From: Rhodospirillaceae bacterium
GTDB lineage: Bacteria > Pseudomonadota > Alphaproteobacteria > MPNO01 > UBA2964
NCBI GenBank assembly: GCA_038146865.1
Contig: JAYQSL010000007.1
Span: forward strand, 492,638 to 556,637
Direction of reading: 5' to 3'
DNA length: 64,000 nucleotides
Shown: positions 90 to 26,637 of the stretch, in pieces
Layout of the letters: every line of letters starts with the position of its first letter
How positions within the stretch are numbered: position 1 is the first letter of the stretch
Notes under the pieces: generated by a model
Seen by the model: the letters and a program-made list of their open reading frames with translations, nothing else
Databases searched by the model: none
What the model was told of the DNA's origin: nothing
Program-made: the position numbers and the translations under genes

Positions 90-827
90 ATGGAGGCGAA
101 AATGGCATTTTCTAGTTGGCGGGGAATTATAGGTATAATTAAGCCCACGATGAGACCAGGAGGTTTAGAGGACATGATCCGCCTGTTACCCGAGGGTATC
201 GGTGTTATTCCGCTATTTAATGATATTCGCCGCGGCGAACGGACGGAATTCAAAGAGATTATGAAGGATTATGACGCGAAGGTAGCTCTGCTGGCAGAAC
301 AGGGGTGCGATGTAATACACCCTGAGGGAGCTCCACCGTTTATGGTTATGGGTTTGAAGGGAGAGGCAAAAAAGATTCGTTCTTGGGAGAGAAAGCATAA
401 AATACCGATCTTCACATCTGGGACAAATCATATAGCGGCTCTAAAAGCGCTTAAGGTAAAGCGGCTTGTGGGTGCGAGCTATTTTAGAGGTGAAATCAAT
501 GACACTTTTGCCGAATATTTTAAAGCGGCAGGATTTGACGTCCTTGATTTCCAAGGAATGGACGTAGATTTTAACCAGGCGCAAAATTTAGATCCGCATC
601 AGGTTTACGCCTTTATCAAAAATTTAGTGCTTAGGAACAAGCGCGCGCAAGGTATCTATATGCTTGGCACGGGTTGGAAGGTGCTCAGCATAATAGAGTT
701 ACTAGAACAAGATTTGGGACTTCCAGTGGTCCATCCAGTACCTTCTAGAGTTTGGGAGTTTCAAAAGCGGCTCAGGGTTCGTGAACCAAGACAGGGGTAT
801 GGGAGGCTTTTGGCAGACCTGCCGTAG
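90..827 (+). CDS. Asp/Glu/hydantoin racemase superfamily protein (maleate isomerase / arylmalonate decarboxylase-like)
   Basis: 245-aa ORF whose length and overall pattern match the Asp/Glu racemase fold, but it contains only one Cys (EQGCDV), so the family call is tentative. Confidence 0.45.
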   Translation: MEAKMAFSSWRGIIGIIKPTMRPGGLEDMIRLLPEGIGVIPLFNDIRRGERTEFKEIMKDYDAKVALLAEQGCDVIHPEGAPPFMVMGLKGEAKKIRSWERKHKIPIFTSGTNHIAALKALKVKRLVGASYFRGEINDTFAEYFKAAGFDVLDFQGMDVDFNQAQNLDPHQVYAFIKNLVLRNKRAQGIYMLGTGWKVLSIIELLEQDLGLPVVHPVPSRVWEFQKRLRVREPRQGYGRLLADLP

Positions 828-839
828 ATAGCTCTGATT

Positions 840-1316
840 TTGGGCATGCTGCTAACGATGGTGGTTGCAAAGAATGGGTTAATGGAACTTGCTCTTGAGG
901 AAGCAATAGAGGCAGCTTTAAGGGAAGAGGTGCCTGTCGGCGCTGTCGTCATTGACTCTGTCAGTGGAGAAATTTTGGCCGCCGATGGCAATCGCACTGA
1001 AGAGCTCGGGGATCCTACGGCGCATGCCGAGATGCTTGTTTTAAGAAAAGCGGCGTCTCAGTATGGCGGACACCGGCTGATCAATTGTGATCTCTACGTC
1101 ACACTTGAACCCTGCCCCATGTGTGCAGCGGCCATTTCTCTCTTCAGAATTCGCCGCCTGTACTTCGGCGTGTCAGATTCAAAAAGTGGTGGGGTCGAGA
1201 GCGGTCCTCGCATTTTTAATCAATCGACTTGTCATCATGTCCCCGAAATCTACGGCGGAATTGGCGAGGTTCGCGCCAAGGAGCTTTTACAAGAGTTTTT
1301 TAGGGCTCGGCGCTAA
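840..1316 (+). CDS. tadA: tRNA-specific adenosine deaminase (CDA-fold, TadA-like)
   Basis: Cytidine/deoxycytidylate deaminase zinc motifs HAEMLVL and PCPMCAAAI are present. The true start may be the internal Met near 882. Confidence 0.85.
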   Translation: MGMLLTMVVAKNGLMELALEEAIEAALREEVPVGAVVIDSVSGEILAADGNRTEELGDPTAHAEMLVLRKAASQYGGHRLINCDLYVTLEPCPMCAAAISLFRIRRLYFGVSDSKSGGVESGPRIFNQSTCHHVPEIYGGIGEVRAKELLQEFFRARR

Positions 1317-1405: not shown

Positions 1406-2953
1406 TCATTCCTCGAAACCGTACTCTTTCCAGCGTGCGTTGACTTTGTCCATATCGGCTTTGTGAGGTGCCACGGTTGGTGGGTAGCGTTTTCCGCCGT
1501 ATTGCTCCTCCGGTTCAAAATCAAGATTGATTGTGGCATCTATTAAAACCCGACACCATTTTCCTGTCCCAAAAAGCATTGGGTCACGATCTTTCAAACG
1601 GGTTGAGGGATCAAGAAGGGATCCAAAATTTGCAGGAAAGAAAACAATATCATCCTCAGATGCATTTACCCTGTATGCGAAGGCCCAATCGACTGCGCCA
1701 TAATCCCGAATATCTATATCGTCATCCAGCACCCAGACATTTTTGTATCTCAGATGCGCGGAGTTTGATCCCCAAAGGGCGGCGGCGGCTTGTTTGGCTT
1801 GGCCACGATAAGTTTGATTTAATTGGATAAAAACTGTTGTGCCATTATTTGCAGGTGAACAGTGAACATCTGTTACTCCTGGTACGCCTGCCCGTTCTAG
1901 AACATTCCATGCGACCCCGGCGCGCTGTATTGAACTCATGACGCTATTCTCGTTCAACATTTTAGGCAGGGTGCCTTCAAGGGTTCCTCGGAAAATAGGA
2001 TTATTGCGGTGGGTTATGCACGTAACTTTGGTTACATGTTTTGGCCCTGCGTCTCCCCCAAAATATCCAGGGTATTCACCAAAGGGTCCTTCCATTTCGA
2101 AGGTAGAGGGATCAGGATCTATGTAACCCTCGACAACTATTTCTGCGCTAGCAGGTACGAGTAAATCATTGGTTTCGCATTTTACTAATTCGACAGGCTT
2201 TCCGCGGATAGCGCCCATCACGTCGTATTCAGAGACCCCAGTTGGAACGGGGGCTGATGCGCAATAGGGAAGGGAAGGTTCCCACCCGTAAACATGCGCG
2301 ACGGGCATTTTTTGTCCTCGTTCCGCCCATTTTTGAAAATGCACACCCCAATTTTGAGCTCTCCAAAGCAGAACAGGTAGGGTGTCTCTTTGACCAATCA
2401 TTCCACGATATATACCGAGATTATGTACTCCGGTATCCGGGTCCATCGTCACGGTGGCTTGAAAAGTGTTTATGTACCTTCCGCCGTCTTCGCGGTGCCA
2501 TTGAGGGACCGGAAAATCAAATAAATTTATCGAGTCCCCGACCAAGATGTTTTCTTTGACTGGGCCCGTGGCTACCTGAGTGGGTTCAACTCTCTGAGAT
2601 AGATAATATCTGGTTGCTAAAACGAGATCTCGCGCCGGAGAGTCCTTAGGTAAGCCAAGGGTCATCGCCAGTCTCGAGTAGTTCGACATCCCACCGGTGA
2701 AAAGTTGTGAGCATCTCGCACTGTCCTCGTTGTAACCAGTTATGTTTTTGAAGAGTATTGCAGGACCTTCCCCTGTGCCAAAAGCCTTTCGGGCAATGGT
2801 TCCAAGCTCACAATTCCAATCTACTTCAACATCAATTTCTTGAAGTGTATCTTCCTCCTTGAGCGCATCAATCCAACCCCTAAGATCCTCAAACACCCTG
2901 GGTTGCAATCTGTTCGACACCCCGCCAAATGAGTCAATATCATTACTATTCAT
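1406..2953 (-). CDS. UbiD-family (prFMN-dependent) decarboxylase, paralog A
   Basis: Contains UbiD-like motifs (GIYRGM, GYIDPDP, VTDVH). It is about 55-60% identical by eye to the adjacent paralog B. The ORF track extends it to 3118, but alignment with paralog B places the start at the internal Met (MNSNDIDSF...), which removes the overlap. Confidence 0.8.
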   Translation of the reverse strand: MNSNDIDSFGGVSNRLQPRVFEDLRGWIDALKEEDTLQEIDVEVDWNCELGTIARKAFGTGEGPAILFKNITGYNEDSARCSQLFTGGMSNYSRLAMTLGLPKDSPARDLVLATRYYLSQRVEPTQVATGPVKENILVGDSINLFDFPVPQWHREDGGRYINTFQATVTMDPDTGVHNLGIYRGMIGQRDTLPVLLWRAQNWGVHFQKWAERGQKMPVAHVYGWEPSLPYCASAPVPTGVSEYDVMGAIRGKPVELVKCETNDLLVPASAEIVVEGYIDPDPSTFEMEGPFGEYPGYFGGDAGPKHVTKVTCITHRNNPIFRGTLEGTLPKMLNENSVMSSIQRAGVAWNVLERAGVPGVTDVHCSPANNGTTVFIQLNQTYRGQAKQAAAALWGSNSAHLRYKNVWVLDDDIDIRDYGAVDWAFAYRVNASEDDIVFFPANFGSLLDPSTRLKDRDPMLFGTGKWCRVLIDATINLDFEPEEQYGGKRYPPTVAPHKADMDKVNARWKEYGFEE

Positions 2954-2987
2954 TATCTTTGTCTTTCCTGAAGGGTCCAAGTGTTGC

Positions 2988-4529
2988 TTATAGTAAGCCC
3001 TTGCCCCATTTATCGAGGCCCAATTCTTCCCATCGGGCCCTTGCCTTGTCTTGATCTTCCTTAGAGGGATGAACTGTTGGCGGCCAGCGTCGTCCCTGTT
3101 CATCCGGTTCATAATCAAGATTGATTGTGCAATCTAACAAGACACGGTGCCATTTACCTGTTCCAAATAGATGCACGTTTGAGTCTCGAGCTCGAACACT
3201 TGGATCAAGTCCTGCGCCCCAAGTCGAGGGGAATACGATTAAATCGTCTTCACCCGCATTGAATCTCCAGGCTAAAGCCCAATCGATCGCTCCATAATCA
3301 TGGACATCGATATCCTGGTCCACAACGAAGACATGTTTGTACCTAACATGTGATGCGGAGTTACCCCATAGAGCTGCCGCCACTTGTTTTGCTTGTCCAC
3401 GATAAGTTTGGTTAATTTGTACTGCCACATTAATGCCCGCTTGTATTGGCATTCCAAAAACGTCGGTAACCCCTGGGACACCTGCACTTTCTAGTGCGTT
3501 CCAAGCCGTCGCTGATCTCTGAATGGAGCTCATAATATGGTTTTCGCCGTAGGATCCAGGAACTGCACCTTCGAGGGCTCCACGTAATATGGGCCTGTCG
3601 CGATGGGTTATTGCTGTCACCCGAGCAACGTGTTTCGGTGTCTGCTCAGTCGCATAATAGCCGGTGAATTCAGCATATGGGCCCTCGGGTCTGAAAGTCT
3701 GAGGATCCGTTGATATCCATCCTTCGATTACAATCTCGGCGCTGGCCGGCACCTGCAACGGCACTGTTTCACAGTCTACTAATTCGACCGGTTCTCCTCT
3801 AATCGCACCCATAACTTCGTATTCTGAGACATCTCGAGGAACAGGTGAACCTGCCGTAAATCCCATCGTTGGCTCCCAGCCAATCACGAATGCGACGGGC
3901 ATCTCGTCAGCACGGGCCATGTGCTTTGCATAGTGGTTTCCCCATCCCTGCGCCCTCCACAGGAGAACGCCAATATTGGCTTGGTCCAGCGCCATTCCGC
4001 GATAAATACCGACGTTATGAATCCCTGATTCCGGATCCTTAGTGACGCAAGCCGAATACGTATTTATGTAACGACCACCATCGCCACGATTCCATTTCGG
4101 GATCGGGAATTTAAACAAGTCTATATCTCGCCCAGTGATAATATTGTCTTTAACCGGACCTGTGCGGACTGTTTTCGGCGGTATACGTTCTTTAAAAATG
4201 TATCGACACATTTTTACCATATCACGAATGGGGGTGTCGGGTTTTAAACCGAACATCATAGCTAAACGCGAATAGCTTCCCTGACCATTCGTGAAGACCT
4301 CGCCGCACACGCTCTCAGGTGTGTTGTAGTCTTTGATATTCTTGAAAAGGAAAGCCGGGCCAGCTCCAGTGCCTTGCGCCATGCGGACGATCGTCCCGAG
4401 CTCCGTATCCCAATCTACTTCTTGATCAAACTCCGCTAGCTCCCCGGCTTCACGCAGTGCTGCAATCCAACCCCTTAAATCTCCAAAGGCGACGGGTTTT
4501 CTCTCAATTCGGTCGCTGCTTTCATCCAA
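2988..4529 (-). CDS. UbiD-family (prFMN-dependent) decarboxylase, paralog B
   Basis: 513 aa, collinear with paralog A and with canonical UbiD (GIYRGM...VTDVF). Confidence 0.8.
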   Translation of the reverse strand: MDESSDRIERKPVAFGDLRGWIAALREAGELAEFDQEVDWDTELGTIVRMAQGTGAGPAFLFKNIKDYNTPESVCGEVFTNGQGSYSRLAMMFGLKPDTPIRDMVKMCRYIFKERIPPKTVRTGPVKDNIITGRDIDLFKFPIPKWNRGDGGRYINTYSACVTKDPESGIHNVGIYRGMALDQANIGVLLWRAQGWGNHYAKHMARADEMPVAFVIGWEPTMGFTAGSPVPRDVSEYEVMGAIRGEPVELVDCETVPLQVPASAEIVIEGWISTDPQTFRPEGPYAEFTGYYATEQTPKHVARVTAITHRDRPILRGALEGAVPGSYGENHIMSSIQRSATAWNALESAGVPGVTDVFGMPIQAGINVAVQINQTYRGQAKQVAAALWGNSASHVRYKHVFVVDQDIDVHDYGAIDWALAWRFNAGEDDLIVFPSTWGAGLDPSVRARDSNVHLFGTGKWHRVLLDCTINLDYEPDEQGRRWPPTVHPSKEDQDKARARWEELGLDKWGKGLL

Positions 4530-4710
4530 AGGTAAAACCCCTTCAATTTGCTTAAAAATATAAAAACTTTTCTGGTCTTCTATTGCATGGGCAGAGTTCT
4601 GTCCACTTTACTACCTGCCCGTTTACCTGCAACACGCCAGAACATTGCCCTCAACAGAGGTGCCGCGATATGCTATCGATAGGTTTAGATTTTTGGAGAT
4701 AAACTGGCCT

Positions 4711-5532
4711 ATGGGTAGAGTGCTGACTAATGAGCAGGTAAATAGTTATAATACCGCGGGGTTTCTTGGGCCAATCGAGCTACTAAAACCAAAAGAAGCG
4801 GCTGAGATCCGTCACAAGATAGAAAAAGTTGAGTCCGAACTTGGAGGACAAATCCAATCGCGGTGTAAGATAAAAGCTCATATACCCTTTCTTTTTTTGT
4901 GCGAGCTGATCTCGCACCCTAAACTTCTTGATGCCGTAGAAGATATTATCGGGCCAAATATAATGTGCTGGGGCTCTAGTTTTTTTCAGAAAGAGGCGGG
5001 GGATCCGGGTTTTGTCTCGTGGCATCAAGACTCGACATACTACGGTTTAGAACCTTGCGAGACACTTACAGCTTGGATTGCAATTTCTGAAGCCTCACGT
5101 GAGTCAGGCTGCATGCGTTTCTTACCCGGGTCACATAATCAGGGGATATATGATCACGAGGAGACCCTGGCTGAAAATAATATTTTATCTCGGGGCCAGA
5201 CTGTTCTGGGTATTAATGAGGAAAAGGCTATTCACGTGCCATTAAAGGCCGGTGAGTTTTCCTTTCACAAGGAGGATGTATTACATGCATCCGACCCGAA
5301 TAAGTCTGATGACCGACGTATAGGTTTATCGGTGCACTATATTGCGCCAAAAGTTAAAGAAACAGGGTTTCCCGGTGCCAGTGCCATGCTGCTCAGGGGA
5401 GAAGATCATTTTGGGTTTTGGGCCGAGGACATCTGGCCGAAAGACGATTTTGATCGCGAGGCCCTAAAAGAAGTAGATCGTGTATGGAAGATGTATCAAA
5501 TGAAGCCCGAAGACCGGCAACCTTCGCTCTGA
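4711..5532 (+). CDS. Phytanoyl-CoA dioxygenase (PhyH) family Fe(II)/2-oxoglutarate oxygenase
   Basis: Conserved WHQDSTYY and a HxD...H facial-triad pattern. The ORF track start at 4645 is also possible; the Met at 4711 (MGRVLTNEQ) fits typical family N-termini. Confidence 0.7.
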   Translation: MGRVLTNEQVNSYNTAGFLGPIELLKPKEAAEIRHKIEKVESELGGQIQSRCKIKAHIPFLFLCELISHPKLLDAVEDIIGPNIMCWGSSFFQKEAGDPGFVSWHQDSTYYGLEPCETLTAWIAISEASRESGCMRFLPGSHNQGIYDHEETLAENNILSRGQTVLGINEEKAIHVPLKAGEFSFHKEDVLHASDPNKSDDRRIGLSVHYIAPKVKETGFPGASAMLLRGEDHFGFWAEDIWPKDDFDREALKEVDRVWKMYQMKPEDRQPSL

Positions 5533-6332
5533 GTCAAAAAAAAATTCCAAATGCCAGTATCAATGTCTCGTGGCGGGAAGAGGGTCATGGGCAGCCGATT
5601 TTTTTTATTCACGGTATTGGAACCGGATCTGAATATTGGGCGGACCAATTTTCTATCCTTTCGAGTGAGTACCACACTATTGCCTGGGATATGCCCGGTT
5701 ATGGTACATCAGAAAATGTTCCTGCCCCACCGTTCGATGTGGACTCTTATACCAACGTCGCCATTGAACTTATTTCATGTTTGGGGATACGGAATTGTCA
5801 TCTAGTGGGCCAATCTCTTGGTGCATTGATCGCGGCACGGATAGCAGCTCAATTTCCGACAGTTGCATTATCTCTCACACTATCTCACCCCTTAGTTGGA
5901 CTTGGTAGGATGCCAAAGAGTGAGAGAGAAGCTGTCGCGGCCGCTAGAATTCGATTGTTTGAAGAACTGGGTCCCCTCAGATTTGCGCATGAAAAAGGCC
6001 CTGCCATATTAGCACCCAATGTAAATCACCTTCTTCGACAAAAGGTAATTGAATTAATGTCCAGTGTCAGAGCACCGGGTCTAAGAAACGCTGTTCATAT
6101 GATGAGTGAAGCGGATATTTTTGATGATCTGTCTGTAATTAAGGTTCCGACAATGGTCATCTGCGGAGATTGTGATCCTGTTGCCCCTTTGAAGGTTTGT
6201 CGGTCGATTTCAGCCGCATCAGACACCTTCATGTTAGAGGTTTTAGCAGATGTTGGGCATTATGGCGCGGTAGAACAACCCAAGATTTACGCGGACCTAC
6301 TAAAACGTTTCTTTCGTAAATCTAGTGCTTAA
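5484..6332 (+). CDS. Alpha/beta-fold hydrolase
   Basis: HGIGTGSEYW oxyanion region, GQSLG nucleophile elbow, and a C-terminal His. It overlaps the upstream gene by 49 nt, and there is an A9 run at the junction. Confidence 0.65.
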   Translation: MEDVSNEARRPATFALSQKKIPNASINVSWREEGHGQPIFFIHGIGTGSEYWADQFSILSSEYHTIAWDMPGYGTSENVPAPPFDVDSYTNVAIELISCLGIRNCHLVGQSLGALIAARIAAQFPTVALSLTLSHPLVGLGRMPKSEREAVAAARIRLFEELGPLRFAHEKGPAILAPNVNHLLRQKVIELMSSVRAPGLRNAVHMMSEADIFDDLSVIKVPTMVICGDCDPVAPLKVCRSISAASDTFMLEVLADVGHYGAVEQPKIYADLLKRFFRKSSA

Positions 6333-6432
6333 ATACCGGAAAAATAAGATTCGTACTTGAAACAGACGTTGACCTGTGTACAGTCCCAAATTGAGGGTTA
6401 TTGTTAACAGAAGAGACAGGGAGAAATCTGTA

Positions 6433-7395
6433 ATGAAGTTTATTTTTACTGGCTGCGTCGCGTTAAGTGCTATCGCTCTTTCGGCGTCGGCAACTGCTCA
6501 GACCTTTGGGATTGGGTCAACTAAGGCGGGGGCGGTAGCCCAAATTACCGCAACTATCTCAAAAGCTGTATCGGAACATGCTCCTGGCGTTCAAATGCGA
6601 AAGCAAACAATGGGTGGTACCCAACAGTACATACCCGTTGTCAACGCAGGAGAGCTTGGTTTTGGTATTTCCAACATTACCCAGTACTACATGGCACAGG
6701 AAGGAATAGCTCTTTCTAAAGGGACGAAATATAGCGATTTGCGCATTATTGCGACCATGATGAAATTCACGGTAAGCCCCGTGGTTCCCATCAAAAGTGG
6801 TATAAATAGCGTTGCAGACCTCAAAGGTAAGCGCATTTCCTCTGGTTTCAAAGGGGCCCCTTTGTTTCACTATATAACCAGTGGAGCTCTTGCGACCGAC
6901 AAACTGACTTATGATGACGTGAAAAAGGTTCCTCAGGTCGGTCTAGTTCAACATTGGCGCGCCTTTATTTCTGGAAAAACAGATATGGCAATAGCTGCCG
7001 CAGGAACAGGTTGGGTCAAGCAAATGCAGGCTAAAATTGATGGCGGCGTTAAGCACCTCTCATTCGATACGTCTCCAGAGGCTTTGGCTCGAATGCAGAA
7101 GTGGTATCCAAAGTCAGAATGGCAAATAGTTAAACCTGCCAAAGGTCTGACTGGGGTGCTAAAACCGACTAACTTTGTTGCCTATGACTTCCTTCTTTGG
7201 ACACACAAAGGGATGTCTGATGATGTTGCCTATAAAGTGACGAAAGTCATGCACACAAAGGAAAAGCAACTTAAAGCCGGGGGTCCTCTGTGGCGTTCCT
7301 ATCAAGCAAATGCCCGTCTTCAAAAAGATCAGGGCTATGCTTATCATCCAGGCGCAATTAAATATTATAAAGAAGTGGGTCTCTGGAAACGATAA
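6433..7395 (+). CDS. TRAP transporter solute-binding protein, TAXI family
   Basis: Signal peptide MKFIFTGCVALSAIALSASATAQ. The length and its position immediately upstream of a fused TRAP permease fit the family. Confidence 0.7.
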   Translation: MKFIFTGCVALSAIALSASATAQTFGIGSTKAGAVAQITATISKAVSEHAPGVQMRKQTMGGTQQYIPVVNAGELGFGISNITQYYMAQEGIALSKGTKYSDLRIIATMMKFTVSPVVPIKSGINSVADLKGKRISSGFKGAPLFHYITSGALATDKLTYDDVKKVPQVGLVQHWRAFISGKTDMAIAAAGTGWVKQMQAKIDGGVKHLSFDTSPEALARMQKWYPKSEWQIVKPAKGLTGVLKPTNFVAYDFLLWTHKGMSDDVAYKVTKVMHTKEKQLKAGGPLWRSYQANARLQKDQGYAYHPGAIKYYKEVGLWKR

Positions 7396-7511
7396 ATTCT
7401 CCTGGAGGAAACGCCTAAATTTTGATGTCGCCCGTGCACTCCCAAGGAGGCGCGGGCGATTTTCATATAAAATGATTGCGAATCTGTGTCTTAGTGGAAT
7501 AGAGGGATCTT

Positions 7512-9491
7512 GTGATGGCTGGCGATGTGATGAGTGAGGGAACACCTGAAAATAAAAAAGGTGCAGCTCTGATTGCTGAGTGGGATGAGTCTCCGTTCGT
7601 TAAGTCTTCCGCATTGATCCTCGGTGCATTTATTACCCTTATTGCCCTGGCTTGGGCGATAGAACTGCCACTTAAACTCGGACTTGAGTGGCTGGACGAA
7701 CAGGCGATGGTTGCTTGTCTTGGGTTGGTGATAGGCGTGGTCTTTATTCGATATCCCGCGAGTGGCGGGAGAAAAAGGCATTCTATTCCCTGGTATGATG
7801 CGATTTGCGCGGTGTCTGGTCTCGGGATCTCGGCTTGGCTTATATCTATCTATGGAGACATCGAACTAAATCCATTTGCCATGCGCGATCAGATGTTTTG
7901 GATCAGTATGATTTTACTGCCTTTAGTTTGGGAGTCGCTGAGACGAACTGCAGGGCTTAGCCTCACCATTATCTTTTCCGCTTTTGTTCTGTACGCTTTT
8001 ATCGGTCACTGGGTCCCAGGAGAGATGTTCAAGGGGGTTGAACAGGATCCCTATCGTCTTATAGCCGAGTTGGGCACCAACAATGCTTCCATTCTTGGTC
8101 TACCTCTCAAGATTATTGTTTTAACAGTTGTTCTCTTCATTTGGATGGGGCAATTACTCCTGCATACGGGCGCATCAGAGTGGTTTACCGATGTAGCTGC
8201 AGCTATGATGGGCCGATCCCGCGGTGGTTCTGCCAAAATAGCGGTTGTGGCCTCTGGCTTCTTCGGCTCTATTTCCGGATCGGCTGTTGCCAATGTCGCT
8301 TCGACTGGCGTCATAACAATCCCCTTAATGAAACAGGCCGGATATGACTCTAAGAGTGCCGGTGCTATCGAAGCGGTTGCTTCTACGGGTGGTCAGATAA
8401 TGCCTCCGATAATGGGTGCTGCCGCTTTTTTGATGGCAGAGATTTTGGAGCTAGAATATACAGAGATTATATTGGCAGCGTTGGTACCGGCAGCGCTTTA
8501 CTACCTTGCTGTATTTGTTCAGGTTGATCTGGAAGCTGCCAAAAATAAGATTGCTCCTCTGCCCAAAGACCGAATACCTAGAATGGCCAAAGTAATGGGT
8601 GAGGGTTGGTTCTTTATTCTTCCATACGTAATTCTTGTTTGGACATTATTTTCACTCAATATGCCCCCTCAAGAAGCGGCCTTCTGGGCGGCGATCTCTG
8701 TGGCTGTGGTAAGTATTATTTTCGGTTACAAGGGCCATCGAATTACCCCGGCCCAATTGTGGGATTCTATTGCTGGATGTGGTCGTGCATCTGCAGATAT
8801 CGTAGCGATTGGTGCAATGGCAGGAATTATAATTGCTATTCTGGATCGGACAGGGCTTGGTCAGGCACTTACATTGTTGCTGGCATCCGTTGGTGAAGAT
8901 AGCGTCTTCTTACTTTTAGTCTTGACCGCGATCGTTTCAATTTTGCTTGGCATGGGGATGCCAACATCTGCAATCTATCTGCTGTTGGCTACCATGATTG
9001 CGCCATCGCTAGTGAAGTTGGGTATCAATCCGATCGCGGCGCATATGTTCGTTCTTTATTTTGGTTTGATGTCTATGATTACGCCGCCAGTGGCGATAGC
9101 AGCTTTTGCGGCGGCCTCGCTCTCGGGGGCCAGGCCGATGGAGACAGGTGTGACCGCGGTTAGGCTCGGTTGGATCGCTTATATTATCCCATTTGTCTTT
9201 GTCCTATCTCCAGCCCTATTGGGTCAGGGATCTGCGTTTGAAATAATAGAGGCCTCAGTTACCGCTTTGGTAGGTGTTTGGGTCGGATCCTGTGGGTTAA
9301 TAGGTTTTGTCTTTGGACCGCAAAATAATTTCAACCGTCTACTGCTGTTTGCAGCAGGTGTTCTCTTGTTACTGCCGGCTTCAGCAATAGATTACGGTTT
9401 TGCGATTAATGGAATTGGATTCGTTATTGGTGCGGTTGTAGTAATTAAAGACTGGCTGAGAAATCGAGACACTGGTTCCGCTGAGGCTTAG
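7512..9491 (+). CDS. TRAP transporter fused permease (TAXI-associated DctQ/DctM fusion)
   Basis: 659-aa polytopic membrane protein with DctM-like repeats, directly downstream of the TAXI receptor. Confidence 0.75.
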   Translation: MMAGDVMSEGTPENKKGAALIAEWDESPFVKSSALILGAFITLIALAWAIELPLKLGLEWLDEQAMVACLGLVIGVVFIRYPASGGRKRHSIPWYDAICAVSGLGISAWLISIYGDIELNPFAMRDQMFWISMILLPLVWESLRRTAGLSLTIIFSAFVLYAFIGHWVPGEMFKGVEQDPYRLIAELGTNNASILGLPLKIIVLTVVLFIWMGQLLLHTGASEWFTDVAAAMMGRSRGGSAKIAVVASGFFGSISGSAVANVASTGVITIPLMKQAGYDSKSAGAIEAVASTGGQIMPPIMGAAAFLMAEILELEYTEIILAALVPAALYYLAVFVQVDLEAAKNKIAPLPKDRIPRMAKVMGEGWFFILPYVILVWTLFSLNMPPQEAAFWAAISVAVVSIIFGYKGHRITPAQLWDSIAGCGRASADIVAIGAMAGIIIAILDRTGLGQALTLLLASVGEDSVFLLLVLTAIVSILLGMGMPTSAIYLLLATMIAPSLVKLGINPIAAHMFVLYFGLMSMITPPVAIAAFAAASLSGARPMETGVTAVRLGWIAYIIPFVFVLSPALLGQGSAFEIIEASVTALVGVWVGSCGLIGFVFGPQNNFNRLLLFAAGVLLLLPASAIDYGFAINGIGFVIGAVVVIKDWLRNRDTGSAEA

Positions 9492-9585
9492 GCTTGATGA
9501 GGCCTGCCCGCTGAGTTGAATTAACCTGTCATTTCGCACTTACGATTAAGAAAACTGGTTTTTCTTAGCTGTGCTGTGCGAGGGC

Positions 9586-10029
9586 CTAGAACAGTGGTTT
9601 CTCTCTGATCAGTGATTTCCCTTTTTCATAAATGTTTTCGGGCCAGGGTACGGCTTTTCTAAAAATTGTGTCGAGGGATACGCAAATCTGATCATTTATT
9701 GCGCATATTTCTTTAGTACAAGCATCGATCATTACAGCCCATACATGCAAACTTTTGGGGGTAAAATTTATAAAACAAGATCGTATCTGAATAAGATCTC
9801 CTGGAAGAATTTCTCGTTTATACTCATAGTTCTCTGTCACTGCAGCCATACCTCTATTATTTTCACGCATGTACTGGGGAGTTATGCCTGCAGTTGTAAA
9901 GGTATAGTAGGCCGACTCATTGAAAGCTCGACTGTAATAACGAACATTTGCATGACCCATATGGTCCATTTCCATCGGGTAAAACATACCTTGGTAAGCG
10001 AGGTTAAAGTCTTCGAATTCTTGCAGCAC
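9586..10029 (-). CDS. Hotdog-fold acyl-CoA thioesterase (4HBT-like)
   Basis: 147 aa with a layout resembling YbgC/4HBT thioesterases (HANVRYY ... LPGDLIQIRS ... LHVWAVMID). Confidence 0.5.
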   Translation of the reverse strand: MLQEFEDFNLAYQGMFYPMEMDHMGHANVRYYSRAFNESAYYTFTTAGITPQYMRENNRGMAAVTENYEYKREILPGDLIQIRSCFINFTPKSLHVWAVMIDACTKEICAINDQICVSLDTIFRKAVPWPENIYEKGKSLIREKPLF

Positions 10030-10121
10030 AGGATTTGCCTAATCAGAGATAAAAAAAGCCAAAATCATCGAAAAATGATAAAAAACTAGGGGTAGGGAAA
10101 TTTTTCTGTCAATTTGATGGT

Positions 10122-10910
10122 TTATACAGTCGGAGATTTCCCACCATCCACGTTGATCGCCGTTCCTGTAATATAGCCTGCTTCGTCCGATGCTAGGAAG
10201 CATGCAATATTTGCAAATTCCTCGGTTTCTCCAATTCTCCCCATCGGAATGTTGCGGGCTTCAACCATTTCCTGGATAAAAGAGTCATAATCGAGATTTG
10301 GTTTAAGCTCTTGGTGTCGTCTCACCCATTGATCAGATTTTATAAAACCAACCAATAGTGCATTTACCAATATATTATCTGATGCAAACTCGTTTGCTAG
10401 GGTTTTGGTTAATGCCATTCCAGCCGCCCGCGTCACTGCGGTAGGTGCTCCTCTTGCCGCAGGCGCCTTAGCACCTATGTTCAAAGTATTAATTATTCGG
10501 CCCCATCTTTGTTTTTTCATTTGGGGGATAGCGTGTCTAATCAACCGCACTGCGGAGAAAAATTTTAAGTCAAAATCTGTCTGCCAATCTTTATCCGAAA
10601 TTTGCATAAAGGGTCCGGCACGAGAGGTTCCAGCATTATTAACTATGATGTCTATCTTCCCCAAGCCCTTTTCTGCTTCATCGAAAGCTCGGTCGGTTTC
10701 CGCAGCATTTAATAAATCACAGGAAATTGAGATGACCTTACCGTTGCCATGGGAACTTATTTCCGAGCGAGCTGTATCGAGGTCTTTTTGATTGCGAGCC
10801 AGTATCGCAATATCGGCACCGGCAGCTGCAAATTTTAGGGCGACACCCTTGCCCAGTCCCTTGCTGCCCCCTGTTATGAGCGCGCTTCTTCCATCTAATC
10901 TAATATTCAT
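10122..10910 (-). CDS. Short-chain dehydrogenase/reductase (SDR)
   Basis: TGGSKGLG Rossmann motif, NNAG, and a Y...K catalytic pair. The start is placed at MNIRLDG so that it only minimally overlaps purD. Confidence 0.8.
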   Translation of the reverse strand: MNIRLDGRSALITGGSKGLGKGVALKFAAAGADIAILARNQKDLDTARSEISSHGNGKVISISCDLLNAAETDRAFDEAEKGLGKIDIIVNNAGTSRAGPFMQISDKDWQTDFDLKFFSAVRLIRHAIPQMKKQRWGRIINTLNIGAKAPAARGAPTAVTRAAGMALTKTLANEFASDNILVNALLVGFIKSDQWVRRHQELKPNLDYDSFIQEMVEARNIPMGRIGETEEFANIACFLASDEAGYITGTAINVDGGKSPTV

Positions 10911-12195
10911 GACCAGATCTCCCATCTGCAATCACCCGCCACCCAATGTCGCGCCGGAAAAAACCCTCTGGCCAGTCGATAGAGTCCAGTGCTTGATACG
11001 CGTTCTCATGGGCGGCGGCTATGTTATCCCCCATAGCCGCTACCCCCAGAACTCTGCCTCCATTGGCAATCAAGTCGCCGTTTTCATTTCTAAGCGTTCC
11101 AGCATGAAATATCTTTACATTATCAGAGTGAGCAATGGGATCGGTCTTCTTTATTATACTGCCCCCCGTGTAGGAGCCTGGATACCCCCGTGCAGCCATC
11201 ACAACGATCATTGCGGCTTCTTCATACCACCTTAAATCAAAACCATTTAATACGCCGTCATGGGAGGCGATGAGCGCTGGTAAAATATCCGACTTCAAGC
11301 GCATCATGAGAACCTGGCATTCAGGGTCGCCAAACCTTACATTATACTCCAACAGCCTTGGTTCACCATTCTGGATCATTAGACCCGCGTAGAGAATGCC
11401 TTTGAAAGGCGCACCTTCTGAGGCCATACCTTTAATTGTAGGCTCAATAATCTCAAGCATAACCTTATGAGCGACCTTTTCAGTAACGACGGGTGCGGGG
11501 GAATAAGCTCCCATTCCACCCGTATTCGGGCCGGTGTCGCCCTCTCCGACCCTTTTGTGATCTTGTGCAGAGGCAAGTGGCAAAGCGGTTTTTCCATCGC
11601 ATAAAGCAAAAAAGCTTGCCTCTTCCCCTGGTAAGAATTCCTCAATTATAATTTCCGATCCAGCTTCCCCAAAAAGGCCTTGCTCAAGCATTTCCTCTAT
11701 CGCCCGGTTGGCTTCTTCCATCGTATCCGCAATCATTACACCTTTCCCGGCGGCTAAGCCGTCTGCTTTGACGACGATGGGTCCTTCAAGGGACTTGGCA
11801 AAATTGCGCGCAGAAGCGGCGTCTTTAAATCGACCATAGGCAGCGGTTGGAATATTATGTCGGGCGCAAAAATCTTTCATGAAGCCTTTTGATCCCTCGA
11901 GCTTTGCAGCTATCTGATTTGGACCGAAGTATTTAACACCAATTTTTGTGAGATGGTCCCCAAGGCCTGCCACCAGCGTTACTTCTGGTCCAATTACTAC
12001 AAATTCAACAGAATTCTCTTTAACAAAGCTGATCAAACCGGGGATATCATCTGACGCTAGCGCGACGCATTCCGCTTCTTCTGCTATGCCAGCATTGCCA
12101 GGGGCGCACCACAGTCGTGTTACCAGCGGGGATCCAGCAATTGCCCAACAGAGAGCGTGCTCACGTCCACCATTGCCGATTACTAGTACCCTCAT
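10900..12195 (-). CDS. purD: Phosphoribosylamine--glycine ligase
   Basis: Full-length ATP-grasp PurD (MRVLVIGNGGREHAL...). The start is taken at the internal Met. Confidence 0.9.
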   Translation of the reverse strand: MRVLVIGNGGREHALCWAIAGSPLVTRLWCAPGNAGIAEEAECVALASDDIPGLISFVKENSVEFVVIGPEVTLVAGLGDHLTKIGVKYFGPNQIAAKLEGSKGFMKDFCARHNIPTAAYGRFKDAASARNFAKSLEGPIVVKADGLAAGKGVMIADTMEEANRAIEEMLEQGLFGEAGSEIIIEEFLPGEEASFFALCDGKTALPLASAQDHKRVGEGDTGPNTGGMGAYSPAPVVTEKVAHKVMLEIIEPTIKGMASEGAPFKGILYAGLMIQNGEPRLLEYNVRFGDPECQVLMMRLKSDILPALIASHDGVLNGFDLRWYEEAAMIVVMAARGYPGSYTGGSIIKKTDPIAHSDNVKIFHAGTLRNENGDLIANGGRVLGVAAMGDNIAAAHENAYQALDSIDWPEGFFRRDIGWRVIADGRSGHEY

Positions 12196-12264
12196 GCTAA
12201 GCTCTCCCAATTTACATAAAAGCTATCTTGGACTTAATGTAAGTGAACATCGGTCTAACACAGA

Positions 12265-20368: not shown

Positions 20369-21781
20369 TTATTCCGCGGCTATGGAAGAGGGTTTTGTGA
20401 GCCGGTTACGGGACCTGTGTTTAATTCGTGGTCGAACATTCTTCTCGATAAATTCTACTATGAGATGTGCCACATCCACACCTGACGCCCTTTCAATACC
20501 TTGTAACCCTGGTGATGAATTAATTTCCAAAACTTTAGGTCCAGTTTTGGAACGTAAAAAATCAACGCCAGCAACATTTAGGCCTAGAATTTTTGCTGCC
20601 TTTGTCGCTACTGAACGCTCGACCCGGCTTAATTTAGTCGCGGTAACGGCCCCCCCTTGATGAACATTGGCCCGGAAGTCTCCGTCTGTTGCCTTCCTCT
20701 TCATCGCTCCAACAACTTTACCACCAACTACCAGACAGCGCACATCTTCTCCTGCCGCCTCACTTATAAACTCTTGAACTAGAAAATTTGCTTTGATTCC
20801 CCTGAACGCACCGATTACAGACTCCGCGGCCTTTTTTGTTTCCGTTAGGACTACCCCCTTACCTTGAGCTGACTCCACTAATTTTACAATCAATGGGCCC
20901 CCTCCCACTATATCAATCAACTTTTTTGTATCTCGCGGAGAGTGAGCGAAGGCTGTGACTGGCATATCTACTCGATGCTGCGACAAAATTTGATGCGCCA
21001 ATAATTTGTCCCGCGAAGCACCAATTGCCGAAGCCGTATTTAGACAGAACGAACCCATTAACTCAAACTGACGGACTACCGCCATGCCATATGAGGTGAC
21101 GGAGGGGCCTATTCGTGGGATTACGGCATCAAAACGAGGTAAGGCGCCGCCGTCGATGTGGACCTCCGGGGAGCTCGCATTTATGTTCATGTAACAACGA
21201 GTGGTATTTATAATTTCGCAGACGTGACCGTGCTCCTCAATCACGTTAGCAAGACGGCGGCATGTGTAGTTGGTTGGCTCACGGGTCAGCAAACCAATCC
21301 TCAGAGGTCTACGAACCGGCCGGCTTTTTTTGAGGTTGTCGTAAAGATTGTATGACAATTCATTTTGTAGAAAAGTCCGATTTGGATCTACAATCATGTC
21401 CTTGGAGATAGCCTGGCGCCCCAGCAACATGCGACGCTGCATTGTGTCCCTATTTGTTAAAGTTACTTCGATAGGCCATTCCACCGAACCGATTTTGACA
21501 CTAGTTCGGATTACGTAGCGCAACTCAGCTTCACCATTTGAACTCGTCACTTCCCGACGACCAATCAATGGTGCAGAGCAGAAAATTTCTATGTCGGGCC
21601 TTTCGGGTATCGGATGAATTCCAAAGCGGACATTAGGCTTTTGGGCGTCACCGAATGGTTCTATGGCGAAAGCATGTAATGCTGAGGTTCGTGCTCCAGT
21701 ATCAACTTTGGCTGTCAATGCCGGTAGCCCAAGTTCTGGGAGGCTTACCCATTCCTCCCAACCCAAAATAATTTTGTCCAT
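20369..21781 (-). CDS. rimK: Fusion protein: N-terminal retropepsin-like (RimK-associated aspartic protease domain) plus C-terminal RimK-type ATP-grasp glutamate ligase
   Basis: The N-terminus (GLPALTAKVDTGARTSALHA) looks like a retropepsin. The C-terminal approximately 300 aa is an ATP-grasp RimK/LysX-like domain. Confidence 0.75.
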   Translation of the reverse strand: MDKIILGWEEWVSLPELGLPALTAKVDTGARTSALHAFAIEPFGDAQKPNVRFGIHPIPERPDIEIFCSAPLIGRREVTSSNGEAELRYVIRTSVKIGSVEWPIEVTLTNRDTMQRRMLLGRQAISKDMIVDPNRTFLQNELSYNLYDNLKKSRPVRRPLRIGLLTREPTNYTCRRLANVIEEHGHVCEIINTTRCYMNINASSPEVHIDGGALPRFDAVIPRIGPSVTSYGMAVVRQFELMGSFCLNTASAIGASRDKLLAHQILSQHRVDMPVTAFAHSPRDTKKLIDIVGGGPLIVKLVESAQGKGVVLTETKKAAESVIGAFRGIKANFLVQEFISEAAGEDVRCLVVGGKVVGAMKRKATDGDFRANVHQGGAVTATKLSRVERSVATKAAKILGLNVAGVDFLRSKTGPKVLEINSSPGLQGIERASGVDVAHLIVEFIEKNVRPRIKHRSRNRLTKPSSIAAE

Positions 21782-21946: not shown

Positions 21947-23290
21947 TTATGATCCAGCAATTGTCATTCCATCAATCCTTACGGTTGGTGCATCATAACC
22001 ATACTTAAAAACCAGGTCATTTGCTGGCGTTAATGCCAAAAACATGTCACGAAGATTGCCCGCAATCGTCATTTCACTGACGGGGAAGGCGATAGCACCA
22101 TTCTCGATCCAGAATCCGCTTGCGCCTCTGCTATAGTCCCCTGTCACTCCGTTTACGCCCATTCCTATCAGCTCTGTAACATAAAAGCCTTGTTGGATAT
22201 CCGATATCAGGCCCGCAGGAGAAGCATCACCTGCTGTCATCCAGACATTGGTTGCCGATGGTCCCGGGGGTCCGCCGGTGCCTCGCGAAGCGTTACCAGT
22301 GCTTGAGCAACCAAGTTGTCGACTAGAAGATAGGTCTAGAATCCAGCTTTCTAATGTGCCCTCGTTGACTAATGACTTTGCTCTTGTAGGAAGGCCTTCG
22401 GCGTCAAACGGTTTAGAGCGTTGACCTCTCGGGCGTCGGGGATCTTCCATGATCGAGACGTTCGATGGTAATATCTGCTGTCCCAATCGATCTTTTAAAA
22501 AAGATGTACCTCGTGCGACTGACGTCCCATTGATTGCCCCTAATAAATGTCTGACTAGTCCGCTAGAAATCCTGGGGTCCAAGATAACGGGTGCCTGAGT
22601 GGTGGACATTTTCTTGGGGTTTAATCGCTTCACCGCTCGCTCGCCTGCACTCCTACCAATCGACGAAGGTGAAGGAAGGTCATCCCAGTGTACCGCAGAA
22701 GCAAAATCGTAGTCTCTTTCCATTTCGGTACCCTCGCCGGCAAGTACCGAAGCGGAGAAACTTTGACTGGTAACGGTGTATGTTTCTGAAAACCCAGTTG
22801 TCGTCGCTAGAGATATGGTTGAACGGCTCCAACCCACGTCTGCACCTTCTGAGTTGCTAATTCCCGCGACTGATCTGGCAGCATCCTCAGCCTCGAGCGC
22901 CGTATCTTTTATTTTTTCTGTAGACGGTTCATGACGATCAAATAGGTCTAAGTCTGGTGGTGCCTTTTCGAGCTGAGACCTTTCTGCTAGTCCACACCAG
23001 GGGTCCTCGGGGGCGGTTCTTGCCATTGCTACGCATCTTTCAGCCATCTCTTTGAGGCTTTCCTCAGAATGATCGGTGGAGGATACAACAGCTTGCCGTT
23101 TTCCGATTAACACCCTCAGTCCAAGATCGCGGCTCTCTGCCCTCTCTAACTTCTCGGTTTTGCCCAAGCGCACGCTTAATTCTATTGATGCGGAATCAAA
23201 CATGACTGCATCGGCGGCTTCAGCACCAAAACCCTTCGCCGAACCAATGATGTCGTTAAGGATATCTAGCGAATTTAATTTATAATCCAT
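21947..23290 (-). CDS. pmbA: Metalloprotease PmbA (TldE)
   Basis: TldD/PmbA family fold. The start is set at MDYKLNS so it does not overlap ubiD. Confidence 0.8.
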   Translation of the reverse strand: MDYKLNSLDILNDIIGSAKGFGAEAADAVMFDSASIELSVRLGKTEKLERAESRDLGLRVLIGKRQAVVSSTDHSEESLKEMAERCVAMARTAPEDPWCGLAERSQLEKAPPDLDLFDRHEPSTEKIKDTALEAEDAARSVAGISNSEGADVGWSRSTISLATTTGFSETYTVTSQSFSASVLAGEGTEMERDYDFASAVHWDDLPSPSSIGRSAGERAVKRLNPKKMSTTQAPVILDPRISSGLVRHLLGAINGTSVARGTSFLKDRLGQQILPSNVSIMEDPRRPRGQRSKPFDAEGLPTRAKSLVNEGTLESWILDLSSSRQLGCSSTGNASRGTGGPPGPSATNVWMTAGDASPAGLISDIQQGFYVTELIGMGVNGVTGDYSRGASGFWIENGAIAFPVSEMTIAGNLRDMFLALTPANDLVFKYGYDAPTVRIDGMTIAGS

Positions 23291-23319
23291 AATTTGGCTT
23301 CCTAGTGTCTTCAGTGATC

Positions 23320-24828
23320 TTACCAAATCGACTTGCCCGAACCAGGCAAGCCTAAATCGGACCAAATAGAGTCTATTTTGCTAATGGTAGCATTATCCAT
23401 GCGAATTTTTTTACCCCACTCGCGTTGCGTTTCTGGAGGTATCTTGGTCGTCGCATCGATCCCCATTTTGGATCCAAGGCCGGAGTAGGGGGAGGCAAAA
23501 TCCAAATAATCTATAGGCGTATTTTCTAACATTACGGTGTCTCTCGATGGATCAGTATGAGTTGCAACTGCCCACACCACATCCTGCCAATTTCGCGCAT
23601 CAATGTCGTCATCTACAACAATTACAAATTTAGTATAGGTAAATTGCTTAAGGTAAGACCATACGGCCATCATGATCCGTCTCGCATGCCCCGGATACGA
23701 TTTTTTAATGGAGACTACCGCTATGCGATAAGAGCATGCCTCAGGCGGTAGCCAAAAATCGACAACTTCAGGGAATTGTTTTGTAAATAATGGAACAAAA
23801 ACATCATTGAGTGCCTCGCCCAAAGTGGATGGTTCATCCGGAGGACGACCGGTGAAGGTTGAGAGATAGATGGGGTTTTGCCGCATTGTAACAGCGCTGA
23901 CCGTAAACACTGGGAATTTTTCAATTGAATTATAAAAGCCGGTGTGGTCACCGTAGGGACCTTCTGATCGATAATCTGTCACGCTTACGTGCCCTTCAAG
24001 AACAATTTCAGCTTCTGCGGGGACAGATAAGGGGACTGTTTTGCACTTTACGAGAGATAACTTCTTCCGCCGCAAAAGGCCTGAAAATTCGTACTCTGAG
24101 AGTTTTTCGGGAACAGGTGCCACTGCAGCGATGGTTGTCCCAGGATCTGCACCTAAAACTACTGCCGCGGGAAGATCAGTTCCTCGTTGAGACGCACTTT
24201 TCAGAGCCTCTGCACCGCCTCGGTGTTCGAGCCACCGCATCAGAGTTTTATTTTTAGACAACAGTTGCATACGGTAAATACCAAGGTTCGTGCGGCCATT
24301 GTCTTCGGTTACTACGATAGGCCAAGTAATTAGCGGCGCTGGTTCTCCAGGCCAACACGTTTGGATAGGAAGGCTATTTAAATTTATTTCGTCACCCTCT
24401 ATGACGATCTCTTGGCAAGGTGCACGCCTAACAGTCTTTGGTTTCATCGCTAAAACAGGTTTGACGAGTGGAACCATTGATTTAGCTTCACGGAGGTTAG
24501 AGGGGGGGTCTGGCTGTTGCAAAAATGCGAGCTGTTCCCCGAATGAACGGAGCTCCTCGCGAGAGCGGCCCATTCCAAGGGCCACGCGTTCCACCGTTCC
24601 GAAAAGATTTGCAAGAACTGGGATTTCTGATTTCGTTCCATCAGCCCTAATTGAGTTCTCAAAAATTACAGCGGGTCCCCGATCTGACAGCAGCCTCGTT
24701 TGAATCTCTGTCATTTCATGGACGGTGGAAACTGGCTCAGAAACTCGAATGAGCTCATTCCGACGTTCCAGATCAAGAATAAAATCTCTTAGACTGTCAA
24801 AAGTCATTTGCCCAAGTGTTCTAATCAA
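23320..24828 (-). CDS. ubiD: 4-hydroxy-3-polyprenylbenzoate decarboxylase (canonical UbiD)
   Basis: Full-length 502-aa UbiD, divergent from ubiA. Confidence 0.85.
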
Positions 24829-25710: not shown

Positions 25711-26637
25711 TCAAAAAATTCTGCTTGCAAAAATACCTGCGAGGAAAAGCCAGCCGAAAATTTTATTTGATTGAAATTTTCTTAAGCAGTCACTGGGGCT
25801 ATTTATGTCCACGCTCCAAATTTGCCAAAATAATTGGATTGAAGCGATCCACAAACCTAGGTAGAAAGGCCAGCTCAAAGTCAATGAAAAGCCTGCCTGA
25901 AAAAACATTATTAAGGCCAGTGAATAAAAACTAAATAACCAGGGCTTGCTGCCGAGGCCAAATTTTCTTGCGGTCGACTTTACGCCCGCTTTTGGATCGT
26001 ACGCTCGATCTTGGTGTGCGTAAATTGTATCGTATCCTAGGGTCCAAAAGACTCCTCCAGCGTAAAGCCATAAAGCTTGCTCGTTGATTTCTCCTCTTAC
26101 GGCTGCCCATCCAAGCAGTGCTCCCCAATTGAATGTGAACCCCAGAAAAAGCTGCGGCCAGAATGTAATCCTTTTCATCAAGGGATAGGTGAATACGAGC
26201 AAGAGAGCAGTAGCGCCAATTATCCAAGAGAACATATTGAGGGAGAGCAGCACAACAAGTCCTACAGTTAATTGAACAAGCAAAAACAATGTTGCCCGTG
26301 TAACTGTGATCTCACCGCTAGGAAGTGGACGATTTTTAGTGCGTGCTACCTGAGCGTCAATGTTTCTATCTATTATATCGTTGAGAGTGCAGCCTGCTCC
26401 TCGCATCACAATTGCACCAAATCCAAACGTGATAAATAGCCAAAGGTCGTCATAACTCTCATAGCAAAGAGCTATGCTCCACCAGCATGGAAAAAGCAGC
26501 AGCCAAGTGCCTATAGGTCTGTCATAACGGGCTAATCGAATGTAAGGATGCAATGATGAAGGAGTGTACCTCTCAACCCAGTTATCCACTGGAATATCAC
26601 TTGCAGTCTCAATCGACGTTTTAGGTGATCGTTCCAT
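25711..26637 (-). CDS. ubiA: 4-hydroxybenzoate polyprenyltransferase
   Basis: UbiA prenyltransferase with NDxxDRxxD motifs (LNDIIDRNIDAQ) and about 8 transmembrane helices. Confidence 0.9.
   Translation of the reverse strand: MERSPKTSIETASDIPVDNWVERYTPSSLHPYIRLARYDRPIGTWLLLFPCWWSIALCYESYDDLWLFITFGFGAIVMRGAGCTLNDIIDRNIDAQVARTKNRPLPSGEITVTRATLFLLVQLTVGLVVLLSLNMFSWIIGATALLLVFTYPLMKRITFWPQLFLGFTFNWGALLGWAAVRGEINEQALWLYAGGVFWTLGYDTIYAHQDRAYDPKAGVKSTARKFGLGSKPWLFSFYSLALIMFFQAGFSLTLSWPFYLGLWIASIQLFWQIWSVDINSPSDCLRKFQSNKIFGWLFLAGIFASRIF

Follow-up and report, generated by a model that had tools for sequence, protein, structure and literature searches.

A 64,000-nucleotide stretch of contig JAYQSL010000007.1 from a Rhodospirillaceae bacterium (the whole of which is called the window here) carries, between the housekeeping genes tadA and purD, tandem genes for two UbiD-family decarboxylases, UbiD_A and UbiD_B, of the type that uses prenylated flavin mononucleotide (prFMN). 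Comparison with ~100 related loci (cited below as L008 and the like) indicates that these proteins and a set of single-copy relatives from soil belong to one tight, uncharacterised UbiD subfamily. The conserved core of the locus is the A/B pair next to tadA, the other genes being lineage-specific, and it is on balance probable that the pair performs a catabolic, prFMN-dependent decarboxylation of an imported aromatic or heteroaromatic acid in a process linked to a divergent operon for a PhyH-family oxygenase and a tripartite ATP-independent periplasmic (TRAP) transporter.

The original prediction, which was made from the DNA letters alone, described nine genes between tadA and purD as a candidate uptake and catabolic module. 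All nine are there and fill the interval, and each matches the family to which it had been assigned when Pfam and NCBIfam profile scores are compared with their cut-offs. The results described below retain the placement of UbiD proteins without a ubiquinone role in an uptake or catabolic setting, and they do not bear out the notion that the nine genes form one conserved module. Neither of the outcomes that had been named in advance as telling against the prediction, orthology of the pair to UbiD or universal core synteny of the block with unrelated functions, was found.

A discrete subfamily of UbiD-type enzymes

UbiD_A and UbiD_B both contain the three Pfam domains UbiD_N, UbiD and UbiD_C and exceed the TIGR00148 cut-off of 244.85 bits (294.5 and 287.4 bits, respectively), and neither passes any of the named NCBIfam equivalog models VdcC, MqnL, PpcA/B, BagN and UbiD. 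With E. coli UbiD they have the superfamily, fold and cofactor in common at an identity of 29–30%, and on PRK10922, the UbiD equivalog, they score 171–176 bits against a cut-off of 788. A genuine ubiD is present elsewhere in the window; its product, recovered by tblastn with E. coli UbiD, is 56% identical to that protein over 498 residues (583 bits), has PRK10922 as its top model (669 bits) and is 29% identical to UbiD_A. Because this gene and ubiA, two genes away from it, both lie in the same window at a distance of 19–22 kb from the pair, a ubiquinone role for A and B is rejected, as the original prediction had proposed.

Among 1.84 billion representatives at 50% identity, one close full-length match was found (873 bits, 72% identity), and the next full-length relative scored 465 bits at 47% identity, a drop that delimits a tight, discrete UbiD subfamily. 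A plasmid collection contained distant relatives only (at most 35% identity, with PpcB the best at 35%), and a search of the literature found no paper that deals with the subfamily or with marine clusters of UbiD genes.

UbiD_A and UbiD_B are 58% identical to each other. Across the ~100 related loci, the proteins encoded first in a pair are 68–96% identical to A and ~58% identical to B, and those encoded second are 70–98% identical to B and 53–59% identical to A. Since first- and second-position proteins group with A or B in this manner, the duplication is old and both copies have been retained; the tandem pair occurs in ~50 marine loci, and UbiD_B is better conserved than UbiD_A in the relatives. 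Fixed differences between the two groups number 35, some of them at pocket residues of HudA, a pyrrole-2-carboxylate decarboxylase, or flanking the catalytic Glu motif. In UbiD_A numbering these include, for A and B, respectively, Ala and Gly at 286, Phe and Tyr at 288 (HudA Y279), Ser and Met at 326, Ala and Asn at 364, Asn and Thr at 367, Ala and Ser at 439 (HudA F432), and Gly and Leu at 440. The majority of the fixed-difference sites hold the residue of A in the single-copy relatives from soil, which identifies UbiD_B as the derived copy.

Both paralogs appear to be catalytically intact, with the Arg/Glu/Glu set kept. An alignment of 14 sequences from A, B and their relatives shows no variation at UbiD_A residues N172, R177, E236, E282 and E287, which comprise the Asn/Arg motif, a Glu that binds the metal and the pair of catalytic Glu residues; the Asn and Arg align with the same motif of Fdc, and E287 aligns with the acid/base residue E278 of HudA. 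The simplest reading is that A and B would be two active enzymes whose pockets are related but distinct.

Comparison with solved structures places the pair at some distance from enzymes with known substrates. The best match of both proteins (E = 4e-64 for UbiD_A and 7e-72 for UbiD_B) is 7PDA, the structure of PhdA, with which Mycolicibacterium fortuitum decarboxylates phenazine-1-carboxylate (PMC10850782), followed by HudA, HmfF and fungal Fdc. PhdA depends on prFMN to decarboxylate its N-heteroaromatic acid and resembles A and B in domain order and catalytic motifs, but it is distant (220–246 bits), has Gln and Ser at the positions of N330 and R338 of A/B, and is encoded by a single gene instead of a tandem pair, and the A/B locus offers no phenazine context. 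In HudA (PA0254; 7ABN), which is roughly 30% identical to A and B, N318 hydrogen-bonds the pyrrole NH and aligns with N330 of UbiD_A, an Asn that is invariant across the subfamily, whereas hydrophobic pocket residues of HudA are replaced at W322 (by S334) and, as listed above, at Y279 and F432. HmfF, the 2,5-furandicarboxylate decarboxylase (6H6V), acts on a heteroaromatic dicarboxylate; its H297, which sets furan specificity, aligns with N330 of A/B, so that A and B have Asn and not His, and an Arg eight residues downstream of H297 aligns with their invariant R338, but no hmfABCDE or hmfG genes are neighbours of the pair. As a tentative lead, that Arg reportedly binds the distal carboxylate within a site for 2,5-furandicarboxylic acid made up of H296, R304 and R331; the second Arg of the site, taken to be R331, would by residue count be Gly in A/B. 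Systems of the VdcBCD (VdcC/AroY) type also differ, in that A and B score 263–280 bits on the VdcC model against a cut-off of 650 and no VdcB (UbiX-like) or small VdcD gene is adjacent.

Gene neighbourhoods of the pair

The presence of each gene was counted in 13 relatives of the window's clade for which the upstream region was fully sampled. The A/B pair is found in 12 of these relatives and PhyH, adjoining UbiD_A, in 10; the hotdog-fold gene is present in 10, the TAXI-TRAP genes in nine, the hydrolase in eight and the gene for a short-chain dehydrogenase/reductase (SDR) in four. The block proteins are 97–100% identical to those of the marine Rhodospirillaceae metagenome-assembled genome (MAG) GCA_038112735.1. 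In L008 and L009, UbiD_A and UbiD_B are still 92–93% identical, with purD at 72–73% and xseA at 60–64%. Gains and losses are seen elsewhere in the clade: L011 holds PhyH, an amidase and UbiD_A only, L013 is without transporter, hotdog and SDR, L016 and L091 are without PhyH, and L014, L016 and L039 have a different TAXI-TRAP (46–48% identical in L014 and L016). It is only in the window's own clade that the pair is found together with PhyH, hydrolase, TAXI-TRAP and hotdog. As a separate observation, the place of PhyH and hydrolase in L091 (5148–9000) is taken by a protein with DUF1877, another that is small and of glyoxalase fold, and one of 443 aa without a Pfam match, in a locus that retains TAXI-TRAP-hotdog and the A/B pair.

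More distant A/B pairs (68–73% identity to A) are still beside tadA, with different partners. These include a divergent major facilitator superfamily (MFS) transporter in L024 and L025, a molybdopterin oxidoreductase set in L053 and L054, and Rieske ring-hydroxylating dioxygenase alpha/beta genes with a cyclase, often together with a two-component system, in L027 and L041–L051; in L027 these are joined by a protein of glyoxalase fold (extradiol-type) and by an HpcH aldolase. Across the relatives more widely, amidase genes are neighbours in L011, L012 and L033. Two cultured carriers, Propylenella binzhouense and Faunimonas sp. B44, have UbiD_A in one co-directional run with tctC-tctB-tctA and a gene of the ornithine-cyclodeaminase/mu-crystallin type (L022 5863–11530 and L023 5861–11530). 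Within 20 kb there are two CoA ligases and from three to four genes of the UbiD family, and UbiD_B is found a few kb off beside CoA ligases (7 kb from UbiD_A in Propylenella). The same mu-crystallin and TctCA set occurs near the A/B pair of L041.

Single-copy homologs from soil and freshwater, which are 60–64% identical, sit in recurrent clusters. A CoxLMS-type molybdenum hydroxylase is encoded around them in 24 loci. An importer of the MFS or TctABC type, a methyltransferase and an alpha/beta hydrolase belong to the same clusters, as do a flavoprotein resembling fumarate reductase and its 2Fe-2S partner. In two soil loci a UbiX homolog 58–59% identical to E. coli UbiX is encoded directly upstream of the subfamily member (L070 506–1048; L110 8856–9398). 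When compared by gene content, the logic of these clusters is that of lumazine degradation in Cupriavidus sp. LA-1, where a UbiD/UbiX-type xanthine-8-carboxylate decarboxylase and a molybdenum hydroxylase of the xanthine-oxidase family process an N-heteroaromatic acid (PMC12391406); the Cupriavidus cluster differs in its amidohydrolase-type isomerase, pterin deaminase and purine permeases.

The neighbours thus consist of ring oxygenases and hydroxylases for aromatic or N-heteroaromatic compounds, cyclic-imino-acid enzymes and di-/tricarboxylate-type importers, and it is from these groups that the catabolism of an imported (hetero)aromatic acid is argued. The earlier suggestion of an aromatic or isoprenoid acid is accordingly supported in its first half by the neighbours in relatives; an isoprenoid acid (phytenic or geranic) finds no supporting context.

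Proposed reaction and competing explanations

In the catabolic pathway that we consider somewhat probable, an aromatic or heteroaromatic carboxylic acid would be taken up, in the window's lineage, by the TAXI-TRAP transporter and decarboxylated non-oxidatively by UbiD_A and UbiD_B, with the PhyH-type hydroxylase and the alpha/beta hydrolase tailoring the acid before or after decarboxylation. In the likeliest case, the two decarboxylases would have related acids as their respective substrates, or would each take a different carboxyl of one substrate. The cofactor prFMN would be supplied by a UbiX from outside the window; the genome is expected to have such a gene because the genuine UbiD requires UbiX.

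A more specific proposal, that the substrate may be an N-heteroaromatic or polar aromatic acid with a second anionic group, is put forward as a tentative and rather doubtful guess; it was prompted by the polar pocket (an Asn, two Ser and an Arg), the dicarboxylate-type transporters and the existence of two decarboxylases. Less probable still is the possibility that A and B remove two carboxyls one after the other from an N-heteroaromatic polycarboxylate that the cell imports, such as a pyrrole- or pyridine-dicarboxylate released by the breakdown of pigment, melanin or cofactors. Catabolism of homarine or trigonelline was also considered and rejected, as a literature search gave no relevant result and the window encodes no Rieske demethylase.

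Several observations weigh against the catabolic proposal. As originally predicted, no UbiX is encoded in the 64 kb of the window (the best E of a tblastn search for E. coli UbiX is 1.2), and none of the window open reading frames (ORFs) of 150–230 aa that were tested contains a flavoprotein domain. No neighbour is universal with the pair, and its upstream side may be a hot spot for unrelated insertions. In L028 the pair lies beside housekeeping genes only (ribF-ileS), and L027 and L042–L047, where it follows a two-component system, are counted with such housekeeping-only settings. PhyH homologs are found elsewhere without the A/B subfamily, in heterogeneous contexts that define no pathway. 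Within the active site, the placement of the His metal ligand (H199?) is ambiguous in the alignment, and conservation of the Asn may have a reason other than the substrate, because N318 of HudA also affects cofactor binding.

Among alternative explanations, the one that survives best, and that we regard as possible if rather unlikely, is that the UbiD pair, the PhyH-hydrolase-TAXI-TRAP operon and a purD-SDR-hotdog unit are independent occupants of a permissive tadA-purD junction, with the transporter importing a compound that the UbiD enzymes never meet. Consistent with this explanation, the block has three transcription directions and is not one unit: UbiD_A and UbiD_B are on the minus strand, the PhyH-hydrolase-TAXI-TRAP genes diverge from them on the plus strand from a 115-bp spacer, and SDR and hotdog follow purD immediately, again on the minus strand. 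Accessory genes are gained and lost among close relatives, other genes occupy their position in distant A/B loci, and the PhyH homologs in other contexts, noted above, point the same way. The SDR start overlaps the purD stop and the gene is probably co-transcribed with purD; moreover, FabG residues S138, Y151 and K155 align with Asn, Thr and Arg in this protein and in three orthologs, and the missing Ser-Tyr-Lys triad makes it a non-canonical or non-catalytic SDR. Since SDR is often absent and lacks the triad, it is not counted in the UbiD function and probably lies outside it. Against independence of all the parts, PhyH is divergent from UbiD_A in 10 of the 13 complete relatives even though xseA falls to ~55% identity, and the subfamily is repeatedly accompanied, in unrelated arrangements (L023, L026, L029, L080 and L109), by carboxylate transporters, alpha/beta hydrolases and binding proteins of the TAXI type.

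It is also conceivable, and in our view improbable, that A and B are subunits of one obligate hetero-oligomeric (de)carboxylase, possibly a carboxylating one. Phenylphosphate carboxylase, whose PpcA and PpcB are two UbiD-like subunits, provides a precedent, as it too has two UbiD paralogs side by side, and PpcB is the best plasmid match of the pair; in addition, the tandem arrangement with its 34-nt spacer is retained across wide divergence. However, the Ppc alpha and beta models give A and B only 198–251 bits against cut-offs of 469 and 565, so that membership is not supported, and both proteins are nearer the beta subunit than the alpha subunit. Phenylphosphate carboxylase has gamma and delta subunits, whereas the A/B locus is without such genes (no further ORF of at least 80 aa, VdcD-like or of the gamma/delta type, was found in the block) and the host is an aerobic marine bacterium. 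A full catalytic set in each of A and B, single-copy relatives and an L011 protein that evidently would work alone, and the 7-kb separation of A and B in Propylenella also argue against an obligate complex.

The least likely alternative, an anabolic (de)carboxylation such as an alternative quinone or cofactor step to which the neighbours would be irrelevant, could account for the higher conservation of A/B than of purD, the tadA linkage that is stable over many marine lineages, the ribF-ileS neighbours of L028 and the want of an invariant neighbour, but it is opposed by the canonical ubiD and ubiA already present, by the retention of UbiD_A only in L011, by the catabolic clusters with molybdenum hydroxylases, Rieske oxygenases and importers that house single-copy members, and by the divergent MFS, TRAP or tripartite tricarboxylate transporter (TTT) importers that are common neighbours.

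Other genes of the locus and wider significance

Coordinates of the features discussed are collected in the table. For GC-rich loci, an ORF caller filtered on third-position GC content, with start trimming, was used instead of naive longest-ORF calls. The start of UbiD_B was placed at the ATG at 2953 and not at 3118, because the longer ORF would run 131 nt into UbiD_A and the MAG gene calls also give 515 aa; the small ORFs "c1" and "c42" beside the UbiD genes are probably antisense artefacts.

Features of the window (positions count from its first letter)
Feature	Position	Strand	Remarks
Amdase/Asp-Glu-racemase-superfamily protein	90..827	+	Beyond tadA; PF17645, 61 bits
tadA	840-1316	+	
UbiD_B	1406..2953	-	515 aa; UbiD-family decarboxylase, second gene of pair, derived paralog
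UbiD_A	2988..4529	-	513 aa; UbiD-family (prFMN-type) decarboxylase, first of pair, ancestral-type paralog
Divergent intergenic spacer	4530..4644	.	115 bp; conserved promoter-like element for UbiD operon
Promoter-like element	4605-4577	-	-35 TGGACA 4605-4600; -10 TAGAAG 4582-4577; upstream of UbiD_A
PhyH-family Fe(II)/2-oxoglutarate oxygenase	4711..5532	+	273 aa from ATG 4711; ORF opens at 4645
Alpha/beta-fold hydrolase	5484..6332	+	Abhydrolase_1, Abhydrolase_6; overlaps PhyH stop by 49 nt
TAXI-family TRAP solute-binding protein	6376..7395	+	TIGR02122, 138.9 bits (cut-off 84.35)
Fused DctQ-DctM-type TRAP permease	7512..9491	+	TIGR02123, 583.6 bits (cut-off 320.65)
Hotdog-fold (4HBT_2) thioesterase-like protein	9586..10029	-	PF13279, 63.8 bits; convergent with TRAP permease
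SDR-fold protein	10122..10910	-	adh_short, adh_short_C2; TGxxxGxG glycine motif present
purD	10900-12210	-	
RimK-type glutamate ligase	20369-21781	-	One 470-aa ORF with N-terminal RimB-like retropepsin domain
pmbA-like metalloprotease gene	21947-23365	-	Overlaps ubiD end
Genuine UbiD (4-hydroxy-3-polyprenylbenzoate decarboxylase)	23320..24828	-	Control outside the cluster; tblastn with E. coli UbiD
UbiA (4-hydroxybenzoate polyprenyltransferase)	25711..26637	-	TIGR01474, 362 bits (cut-off 275); two genes from genuine ubiD

The original prediction noted no transcriptional regulator, and there is indeed none inside the block, whose genes leave no room for one; the block has no Rfam match to a riboswitch or other RNA. 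In 11 related loci, the sole conserved element of the otherwise divergent spacer between PhyH and UbiD_A is TGGAC(A/G)-N17-TAnnnn, and the window's version, TGGACA-N17-TAGAAG, may well serve the UbiD operon as a sigma-70-type promoter. Promoter and terminator scans of the block gave no excess over shuffled expectation and no convincing terminator.

The PhyH protein (PF05721, 109 bits) has a facial triad H127-x-D129...H214 and R225 (in 295-aa numbering) that align with the iron and 2-oxoglutarate ligands of SyrB2 and ThoJ. It is of the hydroxylase type because Asp129 replaces Ala118 of the SyrB2 halogenase; with this Asp present and a TIGR01762 score of 108.9 against a cut-off of 226.3, a halogenase was rejected, and the 'halogenase' labels given to PhyH homologs at JGI are misleading. 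The nearest solved structure to its model (pLDDT, predicted local distance difference test, of 91) is ThoJ (6zyl, template-modelling score 0.82), followed by SyrB2, CytC3 and proline/leucine hydroxylases, all of which act on amino-acid-like C-H bonds; the Foldseek matches 6ZYK and 6ZYL are both ThoJ and give no clue to the substrate. Separately, a distant PhyH homolog in L116 (7292–10640) lies where two PhyH and two TauD genes follow one another, with a Rieske oxygenase, a creatininase and the reverse transcriptase of a group II intron as neighbours, a cluster that looks like one for the oxidation of a small polar amine or betaine.

Of all genes in the block, that of the alpha/beta hydrolase shows the lowest conservation (42–50% identity in L008–L010); its best NCBIfam matches are 3-oxoadipate enol-lactonase-like, all under cut-off, and its best solved relatives are aryl esterases. 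The TAXI protein and the fused DctQM permease are encoded by adjacent, co-directional genes, as expected of a TAXI-TRAP transporter, and the permease is 83–93% identical in L007–L010. The TAXI protein likely starts at M20 (6433), followed by a signal peptide, and its ligand is not inferable from solved TAXI proteins because these are distant (E 5e-17 to a glutamate binder). The hotdog gene is found in every relative with TAXI-TRAP and in L037 and is otherwise gone where TRAP is gone, so it travels with the transporter, and its link to the UbiD pair is uncertain. Beyond tadA, the Amdase-superfamily protein, which has only remote solved relatives (4ix1, a hypothetical protein), is 91–93% identical in L008 and L009, where tadA is 70–76%. 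Its gene is present in PhyH-carrying relatives, in L061 (where the PhyH side is unsampled) and in the soil locus L026, is absent from more distant A/B pairs, and may be a tenth member of the cluster.

Elsewhere in the window, there is no ubiX beside ubiD and ubiA, and the RimK-type ORF matches NF052261 at residues 4–141 and PRK10446 at residues 161–453.

The cluster is best described as an ordinary orphan catabolic cluster and not as a new kind of system. Substrates are known for few UbiD-family enzymes, and these enzymes are wanted as catalysts of reversible (de)carboxylation, so it is of value that a tight, abundant and uncharacterised subfamily, made up of marine tandem pairs and soil single copies, has been delimited. 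One consequence is that the labels "UbiD" and "4-hydroxy-3-polyprenylbenzoate decarboxylase" on A/B-type proteins are wrong, as is "halogenase" on PhyH. The gene-context hints and the existence of cultured carriers (Propylenella binzhouense and Faunimonas sp. B44) make the substrate question directly testable. If sequential removal of two carboxyls from an N-heteroaromatic polycarboxylate were true, the pair would add two new UbiD substrate specificities and would represent a new turnover route for carboxyl-rich dissolved organic matter that is widespread in marine Alphaproteobacteria.

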